A DNA stretch of 64,000 nucleotides, taken from Ignavibacteriota bacterium. Its GTDB lineage: Bacteria; Bacteroidota; Ignavibacteria; Palsa-1295. Under the pieces are notes generated by a model. The model was not told where the DNA came from, ran no database searches, and saw only the letters and a program-made list of their open reading frames with translations. Positions 515-12,355 of the stretch are shown here, piece after piece (the stretch's first letter is position 1; each line of letters begins with the position of its first letter). Position numbers and translations under genes: made by a program. The DNA lies in NCBI GenBank assembly GCA_003151825.1, contig PLYO01000026.1, forward strand, positions 21,704-85,703, given 5' to 3'.

Positions 515-859
515 GGCTACCCCGTTGTCAGGCAGAAAAATCCCGAAAGCTTGTCCTGAGCCTGTCGAAGGGATGCCGTTGGTGCGGGGGGGAGTTTAAA
601 GTTCATGAACTGTGGCGTTTTTGAGCCGCTTTCGCCATTTGTGCCGCCAGAATTCATACTAAAACTTCTATATGAAAACTAATGCGCCGGAAATTGTCAA
701 TGAACAAGGACACGAACACTATTCTTATAGACACTGGTGCTCATCAAAGTACTTCCTAATATACGACACTTTTTCCGAGACGTCACGAAATCCGAAAAAA
801 GGGACACTTTCCTTCCTCAAATGCGTTTCATTATGGAAATTACGAAATTAGACTGATCC

Positions 860-2056
860 TTGTCAAAAGCAACTCCGCTATATATCGATTTATTCGCTGG
901 CTGCGGAGGGCTCTCGCTCGGCTTTTACAATAGCAACAAATGGCGGGGACTTCTCGCCATTGAAAAAAGTCCTCTCGCCTTCGAAACGTTTCAGTTTAAT
1001 CTTCTTGACAGAAAGCGCCACTTCGCATGGCCAGCTTGGTTCCCGAAACAAGCGAGCGATATTCGCACGGTTTTACGAGATCACAAAAACGAGCTTGCCG
1101 AACTTCGAGGAAAGATAGATCTCGTGACTGGTGGACCACCATGTCAAGGATTCTCGATGGCTGGGAAGAGGTTAATGACCGATAAAAGGAACAACTTAGT
1201 CCGGGATTATCTACGATTTGTTGAAATAGTTAAGCCTCGGCTAATTTTCTTCGAAAATGTTAAGGGTTTTACCATCCCGTTCGAGTCAGATAAAAAAAGT
1301 CCATCAAATTCCGTAATAAGCAGGCTTCGTGTTCTCGGTTACAATGTTGATTGGCGACTGATTGATTTTTCAGAATTTGGAATTCCTCAACGACGCCATC
1401 GGTTTATACTTGTGGGAACGCTAAATGGAAACGCTTCTAGTTTTTTTGAACAGATCGAAAAAAGAAAAAAAAGATTCTTGGGAGCTAAACGACTACCCAC
1501 TAATGCTTCAACAATTGATGGAATTGGGGATTTAGCGAGGCAGCATGGAGTTGTTGAACCGGAAAAACCCGCAAAATTTGCCTATGGGAACTATGGTGCA
1601 ATTACATCGAGGTATCAGAAGTATCTAAGCGAGAAAGTTGACCGCTCAATACGTCCCGATAGCCATCGATTTGCGAATCATACTGCCGAGAAAGAAGCAG
1701 TTATGAAGCTATTGCTTGCAACTTCTCGTAGGGGCAAGAAGGTTACCGAGGAAATCAGAGAGAAGTTTAAGATGAAGAAGCACAGCGTAACTATTCTCGA
1801 TCCTCATGATAAAGCACCAACTTTGACGACACTCCCCGACGATTGCTTGCATTACTCCGAACCTCGAATATTGACGGTAAGGGAATATGCAAGGCTTCAA
1901 AGTTTCCCCGACTGGTTCGAATTCAAGGGGAAGTACACTACAGGTGGGATACTTCGGAAAAAAGAAACTCCGCGATACACGCAAGTGGGGAATGCTATCC
2001 CACCGTTATTTGCTGAATTGGCTGGACGGGTCTTGTTTGAAATGAGCAATGAGTAA
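860..2056 (+). CDS. dcm: DNA (cytosine-5)-methyltransferase
   Basis: 398-aa ORF with a TTG start. All C5-MTase motifs are visible: I DLFAGCGGLSLGF, IV GGPPCQGFS, VI FFENV, VIII QRRHRFILVG, IX REYARLQSFPDWFEF, X QVGNAIPP. The stop overlaps the next start by 8 nt. Confidence 0.93.
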   Translation: MSKATPLYIDLFAGCGGLSLGFYNSNKWRGLLAIEKSPLAFETFQFNLLDRKRHFAWPAWFPKQASDIRTVLRDHKNELAELRGKIDLVTGGPPCQGFSMAGKRLMTDKRNNLVRDYLRFVEIVKPRLIFFENVKGFTIPFESDKKSPSNSVISRLRVLGYNVDWRLIDFSEFGIPQRRHRFILVGTLNGNASSFFEQIEKRKKRFLGAKRLPTNASTIDGIGDLARQHGVVEPEKPAKFAYGNYGAITSRYQKYLSEKVDRSIRPDSHRFANHTAEKEAVMKLLLATSRRGKKVTEEIREKFKMKKHSVTILDPHDKAPTLTTLPDDCLHYSEPRILTVREYARLQSFPDWFEFKGKYTTGGILRKKETPRYTQVGNAIPPLFAELAGRVLFEMSNE

Positions 2057-4328
2057 TAAGCTTAATTTTAAGGTAAGCTCAGGGCTAAAGGACATTATTG
2101 GCCGCGAGCTTATCACCGACGATTTTATTGCGATCTTTGAACTCGTTAAAAACGGGTTCGATGCTGGTGCCCGCAATGTGACCATTACCTTCAATGAAAT
2201 TTATGGAGAAAAGTCATCAATCGTGATTGAGGACGATGGAAAAGGAATGAGTTACGATGACTTGAAGGATAAATGGCTCTTTGTAGCGTACTCCGCTAAA
2301 CGAGAGGGAACTGAAGGGAATGAAGACAAGAATGATTACCGAAGCAATTTACGACCCGTCCGCGCATTTGCGGGCGCGAAGGGAATTGGGCGATTTTCAT
2401 GTGACCGGCTTGGGAAAGCTTTGATCCTAACTACGAAACGCCCTGGAAACGAGGCAACAACTGAGCGTATTCAGGTGGACTGGACCGATTTTGAAGGTCA
2501 TGCTCGGACGCTATTTGGGAATGTGCCGGTGACAAGAGTTGTGGTTCCTAAATCTTCACTTTCATATTCCCACGGGACCAAACTTGAAATTACTAATTTA
2601 AGGAGCAAATGGGAACGATCAAAATTACTCCGCCTAAAACGCTCACTTGAGAAGTTAATTAATCCGGTTGAAACTAACGATGATAAAAGTTTCTCCGTTA
2701 AGATTATCGCAAACGACGAATTAGAAGCAGATAAAAAACTTGGAAAAGATAATCCTGATAGAATAAATGGAATAATAAAGAATACAGTATTTGAGCGGCT
2801 AAAAATAAAGACCACAGAGATACACGTTGTAGTCTCTGAAGATGGCAGCACGGTTACCACTACACTAAGGGATCGAGGTGAAAAAATTTACTCGGTTACC
2901 GAGGTTAACACTTATAAAGTCCGCAACATTTCCATTTCACTTTTCAATCTCGATCCTCAGGCGAAGATGAATTTTACTCGTCTGATGGGAATAGAACCAG
3001 TGAATTTTGGCTCAGTCGTCATGTATAAGAATGGATTTAGGATTTATCCATTTGGGGAGAAGGGCGATGATTCATTCGGCCTAGACACACGCAAAGGACA
3101 AGGGTATGCCCGTTTTCTTGGGACGCGTGATCTAATTGGGAGGATTGAAATTCATGGCATAAATGAAAACCTGAAGGAGACATCGAGCCGCGTTGGAGGC
3201 CTTATCCGTAATGAGAGTTACGATGCTCTAATCGAACTCTTTTATGAGAAAGCTCTTCGTAGGTTGGAAAAGTATGTGGTCGATGTGATTCGATGGGGAG
3301 CAGAGTTAGAGGATCCAATTACAGGTGAGCGAAGAGAGATTCGACCATCGGACGTTAGGGAAGATATACTAAAAGTCTATGCGGGCCTAACATCGTCCAA
3401 AGATGTCATTGACTATGATTTCGCATTTGGTGTCGCCGAAAGTCGGCAAGAGAAAAGCTTAAGCAAGCTATTAAAAAATATTTCGAGAATCGCGGAAGAA
3501 AGCAATAATCCCAATTTTTCACGAGACGCACGCACAATTGCTAAACGTGTAGGAGAATTGCAGGTCGAAACATCCGCAAAAGGAAAGGCTCTTGCTAAAG
3601 CTGAGGATGAACTTCAACGGACAGTCGGTGAGAACTTATTCCTTCGTTCAGTTACAACAACTGACATAAAGGAAGTCCTCGGAATGCAACATCAGATAGG
3701 GCACTCTACCCAACGAATTGAGGATGAGCTCACAACACTAAGAGAATCCGTCGATAAAGGGATAGATGGTAAACGCCTTAAGTCTCACCTAGAAATTATT
3801 GCGCTTGAAAATAAGAAAATAGCTACTATAGCTCACTTCGTTACAAAAGCTAATTTCAACCTCAATTCCGTCTCTATTACTCAGGATTTGGTTTCATTTA
3901 TTATTCAATACGTAGAAAATGTTTATAAGGACTATCCTCACTTGAAAGTTAATCGAAAGTTACCAACGATTATCATTACTCAAAATGGTAGCCCAACATT
4001 CCGTCTAAAGTTTAGTCCTTTAGAAATCGTCATCATAATCGATAACCTATTGAGCAATGCTCAAAAGGCTGGTGCGCGCATGGTAAACATGGAAATTTCC
4101 GTGGGGAAAGGTGAATTCACGCTTCTTGTTTCAGATAATGGCAAAGGTATCCCGGAAGACAAACTTGATAAAATTTTTGACTTTGGGTATACAACTACAA
4201 ACGGTTCTGGCATCGGCCTTTATCATGTAAAGCAATTGGTTTCTAAGCTTCATGGGAGAGTGAAAGTATCATCCGACCCTTCAGGGACAAAATTCTTAAT
4301 CACCTTGAAAAATGACTCTACAGTATAA
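2049..4328 (+). CDS. Soluble dual-GHKL protein: N-terminal MORC/HATPase_c_3-like ATPase fused to a C-terminal histidine-kinase catalytic core
   Basis: 759-aa ORF. The N-terminal Bergerat fold shows N-box FELVKNGFDAGA, G1 IEDDGKGM and G2 GAKGIGRFS. The C-terminal histidine-kinase ATPase shows N-box DNLLSNAQKAGA, G1 SDNGKGI, F-box IFDFGYTT and G2 GSGIGL. It is preceded by a coiled-coil-like stretch and a His-bearing helix, GMQHQIGHSTQRIEDEL. No transmembrane segment is seen. Confidence 0.8.
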   Translation: MSNKLNFKVSSGLKDIIGRELITDDFIAIFELVKNGFDAGARNVTITFNEIYGEKSSIVIEDDGKGMSYDDLKDKWLFVAYSAKREGTEGNEDKNDYRSNLRPVRAFAGAKGIGRFSCDRLGKALILTTKRPGNEATTERIQVDWTDFEGHARTLFGNVPVTRVVVPKSSLSYSHGTKLEITNLRSKWERSKLLRLKRSLEKLINPVETNDDKSFSVKIIANDELEADKKLGKDNPDRINGIIKNTVFERLKIKTTEIHVVVSEDGSTVTTTLRDRGEKIYSVTEVNTYKVRNISISLFNLDPQAKMNFTRLMGIEPVNFGSVVMYKNGFRIYPFGEKGDDSFGLDTRKGQGYARFLGTRDLIGRIEIHGINENLKETSSRVGGLIRNESYDALIELFYEKALRRLEKYVVDVIRWGAELEDPITGERREIRPSDVREDILKVYAGLTSSKDVIDYDFAFGVAESRQEKSLSKLLKNISRIAEESNNPNFSRDARTIAKRVGELQVETSAKGKALAKAEDELQRTVGENLFLRSVTTTDIKEVLGMQHQIGHSTQRIEDELTTLRESVDKGIDGKRLKSHLEIIALENKKIATIAHFVTKANFNLNSVSITQDLVSFIIQYVENVYKDYPHLKVNRKLPTIIITQNGSPTFRLKFSPLEIVIIIDNLLSNAQKAGARMVNMEISVGKGEFTLLVSDNGKGIPEDKLDKIFDFGYTTTNGSGIGLYHVKQLVSKLHGRVKVSSDPSGTKFLITLKNDSTV

Positions 4329-5310
4329 TATCCTTTGGTTCGAAGACGACGAGGCAGTAATCAGCGCATTGTCCCCCCAAATTAGGGATCATGTCACTGG
4401 TTTAGGATTCGAATTCAATTTCGAAAAATACGACGATGATACATCATTGGAAGAAAGGGTTTCCAAACGTGATTACGATCTAATTTTGACAGACCTCAAC
4501 CTTCACGACGGCGCTCTCGGCGACACACTAATTAAGAAAATCCGGGAAGCTGATATTCTTACGGAAGTCCTTCTTTATTCATCGAACGGTGATGCAATAG
4601 AGAAGGCGCATCGCCGGAATGCAATGATTGAAAGAATATCATGGGCTGTCGGTTCCGGAAATGACTTGCTGGAAAAAATAAAGGGTATTATTTCACTCAC
4701 GGTTCGCAAGGTTCAGGATCTTAATAATATGAGAGGCCTTGTTGTAGCTGAGGCTATTAGCCTTGAAGCACAAATAAAAGACATTCTCGTTGACTACTTC
4801 TCAGCAATACCTGCCGGGGATCCTGACACCGAGAAAGTTATGGAAAGGATTTATAAATACAGGGTTGAATCCGCTGAAAAAACCCTCAAAAGGTTAGTTG
4901 AGAAGTTTAATGCGAAAATGCTGGTTGCCTTAATCGAGGATGACGCCCTCTTTACTGCTAACAATGTAATCGAAAGCATAGAAAGCATACTCAATGATAA
5001 ATCCAAAATTTTGAATGTAAGAATTAGTCGAGAATCTAATCCTGATGCTAAGAAAAGCTTAGAAGAATCTAAGGAGAAGATACAGGAACTCCAAAATAAT
5101 TTAAAGCTATTCAAGGATGAAATAATTGAAATTCGAAATACTTTAGCACACGTTAAAGAGGAGGTTCTTGAAGACGGTAGCACCGTGTTACAGAGTAGGA
5201 GGAAGGGGGCAACCCCGATTTTAGTGAATGATGAAACATATGTGAAAATGCGAACTGATATAGCAAAACATAAAAAGAATCTCGCCATAATTGCAGAGCA
5301 TCTTTCATGA
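4312..5310 (+). CDS. Receiver (REC)-like domain protein with a helical C-terminal HEPN-like domain (putative RNase effector)
   Basis: 332-aa ORF whose start overlaps the upstream stop by 17 nt. The N-terminus is CheY-like: NILWFEDDE supplies the acidic pair and DLILTDLNL supplies a candidate phospho-acceptor D61 (nt 4492-4494). The C-terminal ~200 aa are helical and contain IEIRNTLAHV (R275-x4-H280, nt 5134-5151), which matches the HEPN Rx4-6H signature. Confidence 0.7.
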   Translation: MTLQYNILWFEDDEAVISALSPQIRDHVTGLGFEFNFEKYDDDTSLEERVSKRDYDLILTDLNLHDGALGDTLIKKIREADILTEVLLYSSNGDAIEKAHRRNAMIERISWAVGSGNDLLEKIKGIISLTVRKVQDLNNMRGLVVAEAISLEAQIKDILVDYFSAIPAGDPDTEKVMERIYKYRVESAEKTLKRLVEKFNAKMLVALIEDDALFTANNVIESIESILNDKSKILNVRISRESNPDAKKSLEESKEKIQELQNNLKLFKDEIIEIRNTLAHVKEEVLEDGSTVLQSRRKGATPILVNDETYVKMRTDIAKHKKNLAIIAEHLS

Positions 5311-5355: not shown

Positions 5356-5378
5356 GGCGGGAACTCCCGCCTTTTATT
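5356..5378 (+). terminator. Rho-independent terminator closing the three-gene operon
   Basis: GGCGGGA-ac-TCCCGCC stem followed by TTTTATT, 46 nt after the stop at 5310. Confidence 0.7.
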
Positions 5379-5587: not shown

Positions 5588-7477
5588 ATGAAGCTGCCTG
5601 CTATTATCGTCCTGAATCTCGGCCTTATTGGCCTGTTCTACTATCTTTCGAAGAAAAAGAACCTGCTCTCGTTTTTGGATGGCGGGAAATGGTGGCTGAC
5701 GTACCTTGCCATCGCCATCATTACGCTGATGGACGAGCTGACGAGCGTGTTTTATGTCGCGGCGGAGTCCTATTTGCTTGTCGGCATCGCGGCGTTTGTG
5801 TTTATCATTGCGACCTCGCTTTTTATCCGGTTTCTATCGAGCCGGATGGTGGAAATCGCGCATATTCTGGAGCATCACGGCGTGCGCGGCGGCGGAGTTT
5901 ATAGTTTCAGCTATCTGGTGCTCGGCCCGACGATTTCGTTCGCGGCGGTGGCTTCGATCCTCGTCGATTATATATTGACGGCGGCGATTTCGACGGTCTC
6001 GGCGGTGTATAATGGCAGTTCGTTTTTCTCGATCTCACCCATTCTCATCTACGCGATGTTTTTTGGATCGATCTGGGCGGTTGCGATGCTCAACATTATC
6101 GGCATCCGCGAAAATGCGCGGTTCACCTACATCATCTTCGTCGCAGCCGCAATGATTTTGCTGACGCTGATTCTTTCGGCGGTGATGGATCCCAGCCCCG
6201 GCCAATGGGCGCGCGCGACGGAGGGATTTCATCAAACCTTCACGGGACTCATCGGGCATGGTTTTGTCGGCGGGATCAACTTTTTTATTTTTGGATTCGC
6301 GGGCGTAATTCTTGCGTATTCCGGGATCGAGAGCGTGCTGCAAACGGCCGGGCTTGCCAAAAGCTGGCGGGATATTCGGAAGGCGTATATTTTTCTCGCG
6401 GTAACGGTTGGCATTGTGACGCCGCTTATCACCGCGCTCGTGCTGACGCGCACGGATATTAATATTGCCGCGCACGAAGACGATCTTATCACGTATTTTG
6501 CCGGCGTGGTCAATGGCCGCTTCTTCGCATACTTGGTTGGAGGTCTCGCAAGTTTTACGCTCATTATGGCGGTGAATACCGCATTCGTTGCATCGAGCGA
6601 ACTATTGGAGCGCGTCGCGCACCGCTATGGATTTCACTGGCTGATAAAAACAAACAAGGCCGATTCGCTCTACCGCATTCACATTATCAATGCGACGCTC
6701 TTCAGCGTCGTGATTGCAATCACGGCGGGCAGTCAGGAGATGCTTGCGCACATGTATGCCGTCGGCCTTGTGGCGAGTTTTACGATCAACATGGGCGCGC
6801 TTGTCTATTATCGCTATTCTCGCGGCAGCGAGGAAATTCCGGATTACCACACCTCGCGGACGGGAACGTTTATCATCTTCTTACTGCTGCTCGCGTGTTT
6901 CGGTTTTATCGCGTATCATAAGTGGCAGGGATTCTTGCTTTGGGCGATCGTGGTCACGATTTTTCAGATCATCGGCTTCCGCGTGGCGAAACGGCGCGCG
7001 CCGGAAATCGAGCAATTCCGGAAAACGGATAGCCCGATGGATCTTATCTTCCGCATTGCGGAATCGGAAGAGACTGAGGGCTTCCACATTTATTTCCGTA
7101 GTCCGAAGGATGTTACTCCGATTTCCGACGATCCGAACGTTGCGTATGTTACATTTTTTTCGCCGCGTTCCGGTTCCCCGCCGAAGCTCGGCAAGAACCA
7201 TTTTCTCCTGACTATTTTCAGGGAATCGGTGGCGCGGCGGTTGCTCTCGCTCATTTATATGCTGCAATACGATTTCGCCGACCGCAATATCGTCTTTCAT
7301 CTCGGCTGGCCCACGTCGAGCTGGCTCGACCGCTTTTCGACGGGCGTGATGGTCTTCTCGCTCATGCGGCTGCCACGGCGGTTCCCGGCCTATAGTTTCG
7401 TAATGGAATATGAAGGCTCCGAAAAACGGGCAGGCATCGCCGGCGATGCGGAGGAGGCGTTACATGCCGATTCGTGA
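5588..7477 (+). CDS. Polytopic membrane transporter, APC-superfamily-like, with a cytoplasmic C-terminal domain
   Basis: 629-aa ORF with about 12 hydrophobic helices followed by a ~170-aa soluble tail. The family call rests only on overall resemblance to amino-acid/polyamine permeases. Confidence 0.55.
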   Translation: MKLPAIIVLNLGLIGLFYYLSKKKNLLSFLDGGKWWLTYLAIAIITLMDELTSVFYVAAESYLLVGIAAFVFIIATSLFIRFLSSRMVEIAHILEHHGVRGGGVYSFSYLVLGPTISFAAVASILVDYILTAAISTVSAVYNGSSFFSISPILIYAMFFGSIWAVAMLNIIGIRENARFTYIIFVAAAMILLTLILSAVMDPSPGQWARATEGFHQTFTGLIGHGFVGGINFFIFGFAGVILAYSGIESVLQTAGLAKSWRDIRKAYIFLAVTVGIVTPLITALVLTRTDINIAAHEDDLITYFAGVVNGRFFAYLVGGLASFTLIMAVNTAFVASSELLERVAHRYGFHWLIKTNKADSLYRIHIINATLFSVVIAITAGSQEMLAHMYAVGLVASFTINMGALVYYRYSRGSEEIPDYHTSRTGTFIIFLLLLACFGFIAYHKWQGFLLWAIVVTIFQIIGFRVAKRRAPEIEQFRKTDSPMDLIFRIAESEETEGFHIYFRSPKDVTPISDDPNVAYVTFFSPRSGSPPKLGKNHFLLTIFRESVARRLLSLIYMLQYDFADRNIVFHLGWPTSSWLDRFSTGVMVFSLMRLPRRFPAYSFVMEYEGSEKRAGIAGDAEEALHADS

Positions 7478-8165
7478 TGTGGCGGCCATATTAGTCGCCG
7501 GAGGGTCTTCGACGAGATTTGGAAGCTCATCGTCGGCGATGAGTCGAAAACAGTTCGAGACAATCGGCGAATTGCCGATGTATCAATTAGTGGCGCGGAC
7601 GTTTTCGCGCGTCGAGCCGGTGCATACCATTGTCCTCGTTGGCCGCGCTGAGGACCTATCGGAAATGGAGCAAGGACTTCGAGCTATGAATCTGCCGGTG
7701 AAATGGAAAGTCGTCACAGGAGGGGAAACGCGGCAGGATTCGGTTGCGAACGGACTTCGCGCGATACGCGGCGAGCGCGAAATAAAAATCGGAATTGTGC
7801 ATGACGTGGCGCGCGCGCTTGTCGATCAGGCGCTCATTCTTTCTGTGATTCAAGCGATTCGCGAGCATGGCTCCGCCGTGGCATGTTTGGAAATTGTCGA
7901 TACGATCAAGCGCGCTGAGGGTCGCGAAATTATGGAGACCGTCCCTCGCGAAAACCTTTGGCGCGCGCAAACGCCGCAGGGCGCGAGGATTGAGCTTCTT
8001 CGCACTGCTTATGAATCGGCGCGCGAAGCGAATTTTCATGGCACGGATGAATCGCAGCTTCTGGAACGCATCGGCGAGCACCCTCGCCTCGTGACGGGTA
8101 GCGAGATGAATTTCAAGATTACGTATCCGAGCGATCTCGAACGGGCGCGTTTGGGTAGAGGATAA
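7464..8165 (+). CDS. ispD: 2-C-methyl-D-erythritol 4-phosphate cytidylyltransferase
   Basis: AAILVAGGSSTRFG P-loop-like motif, VHDVARAL and DTIKR motifs. An in-frame ATG at 7464 gives MPIRDVAAILVAGG. The upstream part of ORF 7410-8165 overlaps the transporter. Confidence 0.88.
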   Translation: MPIRDVAAILVAGGSSTRFGSSSSAMSRKQFETIGELPMYQLVARTFSRVEPVHTIVLVGRAEDLSEMEQGLRAMNLPVKWKVVTGGETRQDSVANGLRAIRGEREIKIGIVHDVARALVDQALILSVIQAIREHGSAVACLEIVDTIKRAEGREIMETVPRENLWRAQTPQGARIELLRTAYESAREANFHGTDESQLLERIGEHPRLVTGSEMNFKITYPSDLERARLGRG

Positions 8166-8202: not shown

Positions 8203-9747
8203 TTACCTCATCCTCACAAAATTTTGGCGACCGAGCAAATCCCCATTGCTCGCCCGCGCAAGCAGAGTGTATTCGCCGTCCACGAGGGCATCGGTATTTA
8301 TTGGAATAGGCTCTGCATTGCTGTTCGGCGGCATGGCAATTCGCATCACTTCGCGGCCCAATACATCCAGCACGCGGATTTCGGATGGCTGCACAGCGCC
8401 ACCCAAGAACAACGTCAGCGAATTGCCGCATGGATTTGGCGCAATAAAAAACGTGCCAGCGGATGCAACGGGACTAACGCTTGCTGCTTGTGCCTCGAAT
8501 GCGCCGATAGATCGTGCGGTGAGTGAATATGGCATGCCAAGATAATCCGTCACCGGTTCCTGCGTGGCGAATCCCTTGCCAATAGCCGGACTTCCGGCGC
8601 GAAGCGAAAAATCTCCATTCGATGTATCCGTAAAATCCGGGTCGCCGATGAGCGAGCCGGATACATTCACGCCGGGCAGTTCCAACCAGCTGATGGAATC
8701 GGGATCGGCGAACAAGTAATCGTGAAAAAGGTTATTCTTAAAATACTCTGTACTATAGTTGAAGGGATCCGATGCATTGAGATAGATATGGTTTACGCTA
8801 TAGGTGGTGAAGATGTTATTATAGACGTAGTTGCTGTCCAATGTGATGGTCGGCACGCTGGTGTTGAGCGATCGAAAGGCAAAGGAAGTCGTCTTAAAGC
8901 AGGTGTTATTGAAAATGAAGGCGTGATGACAGGAACTTAACCTAATTCCCGTCAAGCCGCCGATGAACACATTCGCATAAACCATAATGCTATCGGCTTC
9001 CCATGTCGCGCCGAGCGGACAAAAAAACTGCGGGCCGGTATCGCCGCCAACATCCACGCCATCCGCGATGCAATTGATAAAACGATTCTGCTCATAGACG
9101 ATATTCTTCGCGCCGCCTTTGCAGTGCGATCCATCACCCGGCATATTCTGGAACAGACAATGGCTGACCAGCCCATTACTATCGGCATTCAGGCTGATTC
9201 CATCGGTGATATTCGTTCCATCACGGAAGGTGCAGTTCAATACCTGAAAATTCGCTGTGCCATCGATCTTGAGACATGCGCCGGTATTTCCCTTCCCGGT
9301 ATTATTTAAATCGGAAAACGTGCAGTTTTCTATTATTATATCATGGTTCGAAGTGAAGCAGGCATACTGATAATCGAAGAAAAGCAGATGGAACACCTGC
9401 GCGCTATCGGCGCGGTCGTTGCCATAAAAATTAAGACCGGAGATTTTCAGATACTGCGCGGCCTGAAACGTATATTGCACATGAATCGAAACGGAATCAT
9501 TCTCATACGGCATAATCGTTATCCATCGATCGGGAGTCCCGATCAGGCTGTCGATCAAAGTGTTCGCATCGCTGTATGTGCCGGCGTGAACGAATACGGT
9601 ATCGCCCGGATGCACCGCCCGCGCATTGGCAGCGTCGCCAATATTGAGATACGTCTGTCCCGGCCCGACCTGCACAGCCTGCGCCCAGGACGCGGACGTA
9701 ACGAACGCCGTAAGTAGAGTGAGAAAGGCGATGCGGATATTATTCAT
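8203..9747 (-). CDS. Secreted right-handed parallel beta-helix repeat protein with a T9SS C-terminal sorting domain
   Basis: Signal peptide MNNIRIAFLTLLTAFVTSASWAQA. Repeated N/G/C-rich beta-helix turns (CTFSDLNN, LNCTFRDGTN, SHCLFQNM, IFNNTCF). C-terminus FFIAPNPCGNSLTLFL...GEYTLLA resembles a Por secretion tail. Confidence 0.75.
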   Translation of the reverse strand: MNNIRIAFLTLLTAFVTSASWAQAVQVGPGQTYLNIGDAANARAVHPGDTVFVHAGTYSDANTLIDSLIGTPDRWITIMPYENDSVSIHVQYTFQAAQYLKISGLNFYGNDRADSAQVFHLLFFDYQYACFTSNHDIIIENCTFSDLNNTGKGNTGACLKIDGTANFQVLNCTFRDGTNITDGISLNADSNGLVSHCLFQNMPGDGSHCKGGAKNIVYEQNRFINCIADGVDVGGDTGPQFFCPLGATWEADSIMVYANVFIGGLTGIRLSSCHHAFIFNNTCFKTTSFAFRSLNTSVPTITLDSNYVYNNIFTTYSVNHIYLNASDPFNYSTEYFKNNLFHDYLFADPDSISWLELPGVNVSGSLIGDPDFTDTSNGDFSLRAGSPAIGKGFATQEPVTDYLGMPYSLTARSIGAFEAQAASVSPVASAGTFFIAPNPCGNSLTLFLGGAVQPSEIRVLDVLGREVMRIAMPPNSNAEPIPINTDALVDGEYTLLARASNGDLLGRQNFVRMR

Positions 9748-9774
9748 GATAGCGCAAGTGTAATTGTATATCGG

Positions 9775-10701
9775 CTATTCTTCTTCAGTGGAATTCCCTG
9801 TTTCACCTTCGGACAAAAGGGGTGTCGCCTGTTTGCCGAGGTAGTTTTGGCGTGTCACAACCGGTTTGCCAGACTTGACTTCGAGTTGCAGCCGTGCGCT
9901 CCCGGCAATAGTGCCTCCTTCTTTTGCGGCATTTTTATTAGGGTTGAATCCCACGGCATCTTTATTCCGCGCGATCTCGGTTGTCGCGGCTTCTCCGAGC
10001 ATGGTGAAGATGAGTTCCAAATCGGTCATGTGGTCGCGGAGATTTTCGCGTTTCAGGCCCTTGAGATTTTTGTATTCCGCTGGCGTAAGCCCGAAGGTTG
10101 CCTTTGAAATTTCGGCCGTTAAAATGGCAAACTCTATCCCTTCTTTAACTCCTCGCGACTTCCATTCGTCCGTCAGTTCATCCCGGACGGCGACCGAGCG
10201 AACGCGTTTTTCGATCCAATCGGCGGAGTAACCTTTTTGTTTATAGAGGTCGCGCATTCGTTGTTGCGCCAGCTCGGGATTTTCAATTTCCTGAACGCGC
10301 TCGTAGCCAACTTTGGCAAGCCATTGCTTGAAGGGTTCAGCCTTGGGACTGGGTAGAGACTGTATTACCCGAAAAGCGCTTTCTGTATTGACCACTTCGG
10401 TCTCGTAAAGCTTCCCATCCGATGCTGGGATTTTCAGTTGTCGACAAAGTGTCGACAACTCGAAACCTGTCGCTTCTTTTTCGCGCCGCTTCATTCGGTA
10501 CCAATAATCGCGTGGATTTGGGCTGTCGGTCAAAGCGCCCACTATATCAACGACCGAGAAAAACCATTGCTCGTCCAGCCAAACGCGGCGAATCTGCTTC
10601 GCGCCAAAAACAACGATCTTCCCTTCCGATTCCGATTTTGCTTTTTTACTCATTGTGTAATTTAGGGTGCCCATCATCCAAATGACACGATACGAACTCA
10701 C
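9775..10701 (-). CDS. BRO-N domain / DNA-damage-inducible protein D (DinD)-like protein
   Basis: FGAKQIRRVWLDEQWFFSVVDIVGALTDSPNPRDYW is a typical BRO-N motif, followed by a DinD-like helical region. The maximal ORF start at 10701 overlaps the hprK stop (ATGA). An alternative ATG at 10653 gives MSKKAKSE. Confidence 0.75.
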   Translation of the reverse strand: MSSYRVIWMMGTLNYTMSKKAKSESEGKIVVFGAKQIRRVWLDEQWFFSVVDIVGALTDSPNPRDYWYRMKRREKEATGFELSTLCRQLKIPASDGKLYETEVVNTESAFRVIQSLPSPKAEPFKQWLAKVGYERVQEIENPELAQQRMRDLYKQKGYSADWIEKRVRSVAVRDELTDEWKSRGVKEGIEFAILTAEISKATFGLTPAEYKNLKGLKRENLRDHMTDLELIFTMLGEAATTEIARNKDAVGFNPNKNAAKEGGTIAGSARLQLEVKSGKPVVTRQNYLGKQATPLLSEGETGNSTEEE

Positions 10702-11849: not shown

Positions 11850-12355
11850 GTGGCCCGTTTATAGAAAAGCGAGTATAAAATAGAGGTTTTTCTCTCCCAG
11901 CATGAACGTCAAATAAACGCCCATGCAAATCATTTTAGTCCTGTCGTATAGTACACTACAACAGGCCACAATACATTGTCAAAGAACTACGTGGATGAGC
12001 GATCATCCACGGCACTCAATGTCTCCGAAGCTAAGGGTAGACCCGCCCCGGACTTCTTGATTGCCCCCAAGGCGCCATTTGATTTCATTGTGCAGGGATC
12101 ATACATGCCTGTACTGGCAGCGGTCTGTTTACACTCTCAACGCTCGCAAACAGTCATTACGCATAAAAATGATAAATGTTTCGCTTTCTTATAGAAATTT
12201 TGCTTTTTTATTAACAATTCCGTATTCTATCAGAAATCGCATATTTCCAATAGGACTTTTACAGAAGAACCAAGCTCCGGCAGGAGCGACCTACGGGCCG
12301 CTCCTGCCGGAGCTTAATGCCAAAAAATCAAAAACGATTTCTACAAACGGGCCAC
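11850..12355. mobile_element. MITE-like element, long copy (~506 bp), bounded by GTGGCCCGTTTATAGAAA / TTTCTACAAACGGGCCAC inverted repeats
   Basis: The ends at 11850-11867 and 12338-12355 are 17/18 reverse-complementary. A hairpin at 12272-12315 (AAGCTCCGGCAGGAGCG...CGCTCCTGCCGGAGCTT) is homologous to the one at 428-475, with compensatory stem changes. No convincing ORF lies inside. Confidence 0.5.

Follow-up and report, generated by a model that had tools for sequence, protein, structure and literature searches.

Do a DNA methylase, a soluble histidine kinase and a receiver protein, encoded side by side in a bacterial genome, form a functional unit, and what might such a unit do? We address this question for a three-gene cassette at positions 860 to 5,310 of a 64,000-nucleotide stretch of an Ignavibacteriota genome (GenBank assembly GCA_003151825.1, contig PLYO01000026.1, positions 21,704 to 85,703, forward strand), hereafter the window. 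The cassette encodes a C5 cytosine DNA methyltransferase (gene 1), a fusion of a paraMORC-like GHKL ATPase with a histidine kinase (gene 2), and a receiver domain joined to a C-terminal helical domain (gene 3). An earlier reading of the nucleotide sequence (the original prediction) had proposed that these genes constitute a phosphorelay immune module. On balance, and with some reserve, we favour a related view, in which the cassette would be a mobile, self-contained, methylation-linked phosphorelay module, acting as an immune system, an addiction system, or both.

We investigated the distribution of the three genes across loci drawn from contigs of one genome per species. Seventy loci were returned, of which 69 encode a relative of gene 3 (tblastn). 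Methylase, kinase and receiver genes follow one another in the same order and on the same strand in 60 of the 69, with the methylase homologue directly upstream of the kinase; seven others are cut by a contig end, the kinase being still visible in all seven, and two are visibly decayed. The triad is thus present in 60 of the 62 loci that retain enough upstream sequence, and it was found in all of six contexts reached by other routes. Co-occurrence of the three genes in other genomes had been set beforehand as a check that could overturn the original prediction; judging from these loci, the triad is essentially obligate. Its relatives' loci likewise have overlapping start and stop codons.

The triad has spread horizontally. 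We identified loci in Bacteroidota, Bacillota, Patescibacteria, Campylobacterota, SUP05/Thiodubiliella symbionts and Treponema, and additionally in Verrucomicrobia, Calditrichota, Sericytochromatia and one Candidatus Methanoperedens archaeon. For gene 3, a word-indexed search gave 59 relatives, and an exhaustive profile search with the output domain gave 810 clusters (50% identity) at E <= 1e-3 and 493 at E <= 1e-10. For gene 2, relatives number in the thousands; the best 120 are full length, with 45-78% identity, and include proteins of Bacillus subtilis, B. halotolerans, Paenibacillus, Brevibacillus, Patescibacteria and Bacteroidales. Kinase and receiver moreover co-evolve, as their per-locus identities to the window proteins are correlated (Spearman 0.53, p = 1e-4).

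For gene 2, a Pfam scan identified HATPase_c_3 at residues 27-177 (7e-27) and HATPase_c at residues 659-755 (2e-27), and no sensor or membrane domain, in keeping with the earlier proposal of a soluble protein with two Bergerat folds. We determined the invariant residues of this protein from an alignment of 24 relatives with 41-78% identity. The GHKL motifs of the N-terminal ATPase (E31/N35/D38, D62xGxG and GAKGxG) are invariant, and a search of the PDB gave weak matches to MutL and PMS1. A Bergerat-fold ATPase with intact motifs, located in an R-M or methylase neighbourhood, is one mark of MORC and paraMORC proteins (PMC2292703), and gene 2 has it; another is an S5-fold domain after the GHKL domain, where the middle domain of gene 2 matches no Pfam family. 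Residues 29-219 also resemble the restriction enzymes BbrUII and HgiDII (NF050001, 85 bits against a cut-off of 550), and the only PADLOC models to match gene 2 were REase_II (PDLC03419, residues 1-208) and MzaB.

The middle region of gene 2 contains three strongly conserved blocks (NGFR, RKxQGxxRxLGTRDLIGRIE and SRDGG), within which the invariant positions are NGFR328-331, R348, Q351, R355, G358, R360, G364-R365, E377, S380-R381 and GG383-384. It is partly common to the HEF_HK protein of Escherichia coli UTI89, and no Pfam family was identified there in gene 2 or in the relatives scanned. Further downstream, H548 is the single invariant histidine of the family and lies within a helical segment. 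A profile of the gene 2 family aligns across the DHp and CA domains with HK853, ThkA, SrrB and VicK (E = 1e-12 to 1e-13), placing H548 on their phospho-accepting H-box histidine, and the N, G1, F and G2 boxes are invariant. None of the Pfam DHp models (HisKA and its variants, HEF_HK) matches the H548 segment in any of the 24 proteins. By these alignments, the C-terminus of gene 2 is a complete histidine-kinase core with a conserved phospho-histidine.

For gene 3, Response_reg (PF00072) aligns with residues 8-97 (E = 1.6e-6), at 28.7 bits just below the gathering score of 30.2, and is matched by 115 of 131 relatives; these are cluster representatives with 24-41% identity, in which invariance was measured. 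In an AlphaFold model of the protein (pLDDT 81), residues 1-133 adopt a (beta-alpha)5 fold, which superposes in Foldseek on solved receivers (TM ~0.74), and the full-length model matches receivers only. Over its full length the protein is invariant only at D61, Y89, R141, G142, R275, H280 and R314, and D56 and S90 are also conserved in the receiver. A receiver-like domain with D61 as its acceptor, as first proposed, is thereby well founded.

Is the C-terminal domain of gene 3 a HEPN domain? We consider this likely, and the domain would then be a predicted RNase, because of its invariant R-N-x-x-A-H motif, the position of that motif at the end of a helix, and subthreshold matches to families of the HEPN clan. 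AlphaFold models the C-terminal 200 residues as helical with a small beta-hairpin: helices at 137-164 and 171-197 are followed by an insert at 201-240, a long helix at 244-279 that is closed by R275-N-T-L-A-H280, the hairpin (as in Csx1), and a last helix at 307-331. The sequence IRNTLAH singled out by the original prediction corresponds to residues 274-280; R275 and H280 are invariant and N276 and A279 at least 90% conserved in the 131 relatives, and the upstream acidic residue E152 is at least 90% conserved in alignment A1. Anantharaman et al. (2013, PMC3710099) recognise HEPN domains by an Rx4-6H motif in which the arginine is followed by a polar residue (N, D or H). The motif closes helix 3, ahead of the loop leading to helix 4; helices 2 and 3 are separated by an insert, an acidic residue often lies upstream, and the RNase activity of the superfamily is metal-independent (PMC3710099). 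Gene 3 has the motif, its position, the helix 2-3 insert and the acidic residue.

In a member-by-member Pfam scan, the only biologically coherent subthreshold matches beyond receivers were to HEPN-clan families. We identified HEPN_Swt1 in six of the 131 relatives, HEPN_Apea in three, HepT-like in two, and HEPN_RiboL-PSP and Abi_2 in one each, and an earlier scan of 32 relatives gave HEPN_MAE_28990 in three, so that 13/131 and 3/32 members have subthreshold matches to six HEPN families. The PADLOC Cas13a profile also matches gene 3 weakly (E = 0.007). The Ymh family (PF09509) was unmatched in gene 3 and its relatives, and no DNA-binding or known regulatory output domain was found by Pfam in the 131. 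The best 150 matches listed in the output-domain profile search all consist of a receiver plus the domain, without a bridge to an annotated HEPN family.

Gene 1 was called a C5 methyltransferase with its catalytic motifs in the original prediction, and we see no reason to revise this: PF00145 (E = 5e-55), TIGR00675 (5.7e-48) and the PADLOC MTase_II model (1.9e-74) all match, and motifs I (FAGCGG), IV (PPCQGFS), VI (ENV), VIII (QRRHR) and X (GNAIPP) can be read in the translation. The target-recognition region is the least conserved part of the methylase. Genes for the repair of deaminated 5-methylcytosine adjoin the triad in eight loci (HhH-GPD glycosylases in six, Vsr in two), and this recurrence suggests that the methylase is probably active in vivo.

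We additionally examined the surroundings of the triad in the sixty-odd loci. The flanks are heterogeneous and often contain defence or mobility genes, including type I and type III restriction-modification (R-M) systems, McrBC, AbiLi, SoFic, MADS components and AAA_21/AAA_5 ATPases, as well as reverse transcriptase and the TnsE of Tn7-like elements; in some loci the triad is itself Tn7-like cargo. HNH_2 nucleases adjoin it in five loci (Bacteroidales/Paludibacter), and may be an optional fourth component. The HNH_2 gene encodes 259 aa and lies immediately 3' of the receiver gene on the plus strand in L029, L033, L035 and L053; L060 is the fifth locus. HNH_2 is the commonest nuclease domain beside the HEF_HK/Response_reg_2 family (PMC8011034). 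A lambda-phosphatase-like Metallophos gene adjoins the triad in five loci of Campylobacterota/SUP05 (L036, L039, L051, L064 and L069); it encodes a calcineurin-like protein of 229 aa, directly 3' of the receiver on the same strand (~6860-7680). Much like DtcB in the Detocs system, this protein might act on the relay as an accessory phosphatase, resetting or buffering it.

In two distant branches, the kinase architecture is kept but the other modules have been exchanged, a pattern typical of immune systems. A variant on a Deinococcus plasmid combines the kinase with an N6-adenine methylase, an HNH nuclease and a receiver-like protein of 215 aa. In a variant on the Stenotrophomonas rhizophila plasmid CP031730.1 (L012), a C5 methylase and the kinase are accompanied by a receiver-like protein of 212 aa and, separately, by a 226-aa protein without a Pfam match (8779-9459, plus strand), whose SHGS...SCGT motifs are, by eye, reminiscent of a caspase/CHAT-type His-Cys dyad. 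Next to the latter, a convergent open reading frame (ORF) of 216 aa (9460-10110, minus strand) looks SIR2-like by eye, and a TnsA gene is adjacent. We also observed, in L001 (GCA_009612815.1, 9045-13008), a triad followed by a 764-aa HATPase_c_3 protein and a 562-aa Mrr_cat-SNF2/DEAD helicase fusion, a classical paraMORC plus helicase/nuclease arrangement beside the kinase-type paraMORC.

Has this combination been described before? Orlowski & Bujnicki (2008, PMC2441816) noted that R.EcoUTORF4938P, a REBASE "putative restriction enzyme", has an N-terminal GHKL and a C-terminal histidine-kinase-like domain, and that R.NmeAIP combines GHKL with Hypoth_Ymh (PMC2441816). Ymh was later shown to be one of the HEPN families, occurring in fusion with paraMORC ATPases where R-M genes lie nearby, and an analogy with PrrC/RloC has been proposed for these fusions (PMC3710099). 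A linked architecture of C5 methylase, HATPase_c_3-HEF_HK-HATPase_c and Response_reg_2 was reported by Bellieny-Rabelo, Pretorius & Moleleki (2021, Genome Biol Evol 13:evab024, PMC8011034), who found HEF_HK elements linked with those of Response_reg_2 in 644 regions of 628 strains, with C5 methylase genes conserved upstream. These authors interpreted it as a two-component-like system of the cytoplasm whose role would be regulatory and linked to R-M; their paper names no output domain, and HEPN, phage and abortive infection are unmentioned (PMC8011034). The original prediction had held the combination to be undescribed, which stands in so far as the cassette is unmatched by the defining Pfam models of the 2021 family, but must be qualified by the sister architecture published in silico in 2021 and the parts noted in 2008 and 2013. 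A match to an already named system had been set beforehand as a result that would refute the original prediction; PADLOC named no system for genes 2 or 3.

The HEF_HK/Response_reg_2 elements resemble the cassette in their order of C5 methylase, soluble HATPase_c_3...DHp...HATPase_c protein and receiver protein, and in their R-M-rich neighbourhoods, often with Vsr or HNH_2 adjacent. In the UTI89 sister locus (NC_007946.1, 4,836,000-4,841,692), the methylase is followed by a 986-aa protein with HATPase_c_3, HEF_HK and HATPase_c and a 555-aa Response_reg_2 protein, compared with 759 and 332 aa for the kinase and receiver of the cassette. The UTI89 kinase resembles gene 2 in the N-terminal GHKL domain, at 34% identity (E = 1e-14), in a portion of the middle domain (E = 6e-7) and in the CA domain. 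However, HEF_HK (PF19191) has no match in gene 2 (E <= 1) or in any of its 24 relatives (E <= 0.1), whereas it matches the UTI89 protein at 1.5e-25. Response_reg_2 (PF19192) has no match in gene 3 (E <= 1) and lies outside the 25 most frequent families of its 131 relatives, whereas it matches the UTI89 partner at 1.8e-29, and gene 3 has no detectable similarity to that 555-aa partner. We therefore rejected membership in the 2021 family, both defining models being unmatched; given the domains in common with UTI89, the cassette represents a sister branch of this computationally described architecture. The UTI89 triad (L084) is situated inside a pathogenicity island with hlyCABD, cnf1 and cdiA/cdiI; a TraG pseudogene and remnants of insertion sequences flank the triad.

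Detocs (DtcA/DtcB/DtcC; Rousset et al. 2023), like the cassette, is a stand-alone system of a histidine kinase and a receiver-effector fusion, in which defence is lost when the His, the Asp or the effector is mutated, and the effector domain is swappable (Rousset et al. 2023). DtcA has an N-terminal TPR sensor, whereas gene 2 has a GHKL ATPase, with no TPR in it or its 24 relatives. Detocs also requires the stand-alone buffer receiver DtcB, whereas the cassette contains only three ORFs between position 860 and the terminator; it lacks the methylase that the cassette has, and its effectors are PNP, restriction endonuclease, TOPRIM or transmembrane domains, in place of the putative HEPN. DtcC is a receiver fused to a cell-killing effector, to which the receiver and C-terminal domain of gene 3 were compared by architecture only. 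On the missing TPR sensor and buffer receiver, membership in Detocs was rejected.

The paraMORC-Ymh (HEPN) fusions likewise bring together a paraMORC GHKL ATPase and a HEPN domain (putative in our case) next to a DNA methylase, but as one polypeptide, whereas in the cassette a His-Asp phosphorelay would stand between the domains and the HEPN-like domain falls outside Ymh. The BbrUII/HgiDII enzymes have, like gene 2, an N-terminal HATPase_c_3 and a C5 methylase partner. Their similarity to gene 2 ends at about residue 219, and the C-terminal half of gene 2 is the kinase core rather than the C-domain of a restriction endonuclease. We dropped MADS, Mza, Druantia and DISARM, for which similarity was confined to generic methylase or GHKL matches, and a HATPase plus receiver system that appears in a DefensePredictor figure legend could not be matched to the cassette.

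How might such a module operate? The C5 methyltransferase would modify host DNA, and the N-terminal MutL/paraMORC-type ATPase of gene 2, together with the middle domain, would be a cytoplasmic sensor of DNA state. The likeliest signal would be incoming DNA that lacks the modification, perhaps recognised jointly with the methylase, to which the sensor would respond by autophosphorylation of His548, passing the phosphoryl group to Asp61 of the 332-aa protein. The sign of this regulation would be positive, with receiver phosphorylation leading to dimerisation and thereby to assembly of the Rx4H active site of the HEPN-like domain; HEPN RNases are dimeric, with composite active sites. The activated domain would cleave RNA and arrest the cell, giving a phage or plasmid phenotype of abortive infection or post-segregational killing. 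Precedents are provided by the paraMORC-HEPN fusions of R-M contexts and by the antiphage kinase and receiver-effector pair of Detocs. Defence and addiction are not exclusive roles, and sequence cannot separate one, the other, or both.

In this mechanism, we consider it more likely that the methylase is a recognition or "self-marking" partner, possibly in a translationally coupled complex, than that the kinase reads a fixed sequence, because the methylase is swapped without a matching change in the kinase and is an N6-adenine enzyme in one branch. A related possibility, which we put forward tentatively, is a "restriction without DNA cleavage", whereby a methylase would define self, a MutL/MORC ATPase would detect unmodified DNA and a His-Asp relay would switch on a HEPN RNase through dimerisation driven by the receiver, perhaps with the swappable methylase as the sequence-recognition subunit of the ATPase.

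Several observations weigh against an immune or addiction phosphorelay. The methylase does not co-vary with its kinase and receiver partners (rho = -0.06 and -0.15); with the kinase-receiver correlation, this suggests that kinase and receiver are a cognate pair and that the methylase has been exchanged independently, which fits poorly with a kinase that would itself recognise one particular sequence in its unmethylated state. The phospho-histidine is followed by Q or H, whereas classical HisKA kinase activity needs E or D at that position, and the lysine after beta-5 is not conserved in the gene 3 receiver. For the output domain, no HEPN Pfam family was matched at its gathering score in the 131 relatives or the further 32, and a profile of the domain found nothing relevant among PDB sequences. 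Foldseek of a domain-only AlphaFold model (residues 128-332; pLDDT 75, pTM 0.46) against the PDB and BFVD returned no HEPN entry, giving generic helical bundles only (best E = 0.15 and 0.03, respectively). Plasmid and phage carriage is near nil (three distant plasmid matches and one partial phage match), on which account we dropped the idea of a plasmid or phage module. Finally, the window cassette is solitary among housekeeping genes, and our literature search turned up no experiments with members of the triad family.

With these points in view, the immune phosphorelay of the original prediction is upheld for the operon, the kinase-receiver co-evolution, the modular variants and the domain calls other than the HEPN fold: the HEPN-like motif is there, with both of its catalytic residues invariant, but Foldseek left the fold itself unconfirmed. 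The accompanying proposal, that the methylase marks self DNA and the kinase reads DNA state, is retained here in conditional form, tempered by the missing co-variation and by the N6-adenine enzyme of one distant branch.

Could the cassette instead be regulatory? It might be a cytoplasmic two-component system that tunes methylation or R-M, or couples epigenetic state to expression, through an output that binds RNA or protein without catalysis. Bellieny-Rabelo et al. (2021) published such a reading for the HEF_HK/Response_reg_2 family, and the unconfirmed HEPN fold and the lack of defence genes next to the window copy are consistent with it. We nonetheless consider it unlikely, as the 131 relatives yielded no DNA-binding or known regulatory output domain, and as the invariants of the output domain, the R and H of Rx4H with further arginines, form the pattern of a catalytic site. 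Distant branches, moreover, have an HNH nuclease or another separate protein in the output position, and a mobile, patchy distribution across phyla and into one archaeon is a better fit to a selfish or immune module.

A further alternative is a purely selfish addiction module without any anti-phage role, in which the methylase would be the antidote, the kinase and RNase the poison, and the decay of methylation the trigger. R-M systems can act as post-segregational killing modules and are known to behave as addiction modules; the cassette is solitary, mobile and low in G+C, is Tn7-like cargo in some loci, and would function by the same mechanism as set out above. Plasmids, however, are the usual home of addiction modules, and the triad is rare there, with its three distant matches, and is often found beside other defence genes, such that we judge addiction on its own to be rather improbable. 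Least probable of all, in our estimate a very slight chance, is that the cassette encodes a type II-like R-M pair, with gene 2 as its restriction endonuclease and gene 3 as an accessory. The N-terminal 200 residues of gene 2 do resemble BbrUII/HgiDII and other GHKL-containing restriction enzymes, and REBASE listed such proteins, R.EcoUTORF4938P among them, as putative restriction endonucleases. Yet the GHKL domain alone matches (85 against 550 bits), on which ground we rejected gene 2 as a BbrUII/HgiDII enzyme; no nuclease motif or family was found in the 24 relatives, the C-terminus is a complete kinase core with its phospho-histidine, and an obligate cognate receiver is encoded downstream.

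Returning to the window, the features of the cassette are collected in Table 1. The overlaps of 8 and 17 nucleotides claimed for the three ORFs are exact on a direct read of the sequence, that between genes 1 and 2 being ATGAGTAA (2049-2056) and that between genes 2 and 3 lying at 4312-4328. The terminator proposed for the end of the operon is equally sound: the stem and T-run can be read, and its folding energy is -19.6 kcal/mol (z = -3.7), with none of 200 shuffled sequences folding as well, although a consensus terminator scanner did not list it. The promoter presumably lies within the leader, whose plus strand contains no convincing sigma-70 match.

Table 1. Positions of the cassette, its parts and its borders in the window
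Feature	Position	Strand	Details
AT-rich leader, start of the low-GC insert, presumed promoter region	620..859	+	GC ~0.50 to 0.44; AT-rich from ~640
Gene 1, C5 cytosine DNA methyltransferase	860..2056	+	398 aa; TTG start directly 3' of an in-frame TGA
Gene 2, paraMORC-like GHKL ATPase-histidine-kinase fusion, soluble	2049..4328	+	759 aa
Gene 2, N-terminal Bergerat ATPase, residues 27-177	2127..2579	+	Motifs E31/N35/D38, D62xGxG66, G109AKGxG114 intact
Gene 2, middle region of unknown fold (~residues 200-524), then poorly conserved coiled linker	2646..3620	+	Strong conservation, without Pfam family
Gene 2, DHp-like helical hairpin	3621..4022	+	Candidate phospho-histidine H548 (codon 3690-3692), invariant
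Gene 2, histidine-kinase catalytic (CA) domain, residues 659-755	4023..4313	+	N, G1, F, G2 boxes
Gene 3, receiver plus C-terminal helical protein	4312..5310	+	332 aa
Gene 3, receiver, residues 1-133	4312..4710	+	Phospho-acceptor D61 (codon 4492-4494); Pfam, AlphaFold and Foldseek
Gene 3, C-terminal helical domain, residues 134-332, probable HEPN RNase	4711..5310	+	R275-N-T-L-A-H280 at 5134-5151
Intrinsic terminator at operon end	5356..5378	+	GGCGGG-AACT-CCCGCC stem-loop 5356-5371, then TTTTATT 5372-5378

The three-gene operon is horizontally acquired. Its G+C content is 41-44%, below the 52-56% of the right flank, indicating a compact insert of ~4.8 kb. No integration marks were identified, that is, no tRNA or Rfam match in the window and no flanking direct repeats. 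Between 860 and 5400, the ORFs and their Pfam matches include no nuclease, Vsr, DNA-binding output or second receiver, which agrees with the original statement that a restriction endonuclease, vsr, a DNA-binding output and a membrane sensor are absent. The neighbours of the cassette in the window encode an amino-acid permease, IspD, a beta-helix protein, a Bro-N protein and HPr kinase, and from these ordinary genes we place the cassette outside any defence island, solitary in this genome.

We also noted several features near the cassette. Upstream lies a nested palindrome (383-519) with perfect inner arms of 21 nt (427-447 and 456-476) and outer arms of 22 nt that are 86% complementary (383-404 and 498-519). 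A related hairpin, with AAGCTCCGGCAGGAGCGRCC in both orientations, lies in another intergenic region (12272-12315), and at <=3 mismatches there are five matches against 0.01 expected by chance; this genome thus seems to have a family of such elements, either REP-like or bidirectional terminators. Positions 1-640 contain no convincing gene, the ORFs listed being a pair of 65-68 aa that overlap on opposite strands, and several short GC-rich hairpins followed by T-runs lie on the minus strand (94-106, 299-314 and 430-443). This segment may be an insertion-site scar or boundary. The Bro-N (BRO family N-terminal) protein has 308 aa and is encoded at 9775-10701 on the minus strand, between the secreted beta-helix protein and HPr kinase. 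Bro-N proteins are usually associated with phages or mobile elements, and in L001 the triad is flanked by ORF6N-domain proteins.

What, then, does the cassette mean for the biology of its family? The overall architecture was already known from computational description; what is new here, in part, is a large conserved branch with a probable HEPN output. The link between paraMORC ATPases and R-M dates from 2008, and their bacterial members were still poorly understood according to the 2021 paper (PMC8011034). If the proposed mechanism is true, it would assign a function to prokaryotic paraMORC ATPases, and would join methylation-based discrimination of self from non-self to RNA-cleaving abortive infection by way of a phosphorelay, a new sensing principle. 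The "restriction without DNA cleavage" triad, which occurs widely in Bacteroidota, Bacillota (Bacillus subtilis-group strains among them), Patescibacteria and Campylobacterota, would, if real, be a second evolutionarily independent defensive two-component family besides Detocs, and the first case of epigenetic non-self recognition transduced by phosphotransfer. The family is large and has members in tractable Bacillus strains, among them an intact triad of B. halotolerans (CP098738.1, ~211,582-216,029), which makes the hypothesis directly testable, and resolving the REBASE label of "putative restriction enzyme" on these kinases would clean up R-M annotation. The recognisable Rx4H output in the branch of the cassette suggests an effector-type reading for the whole superfamily, including the sister HEF_HK/Response_reg_2 family.

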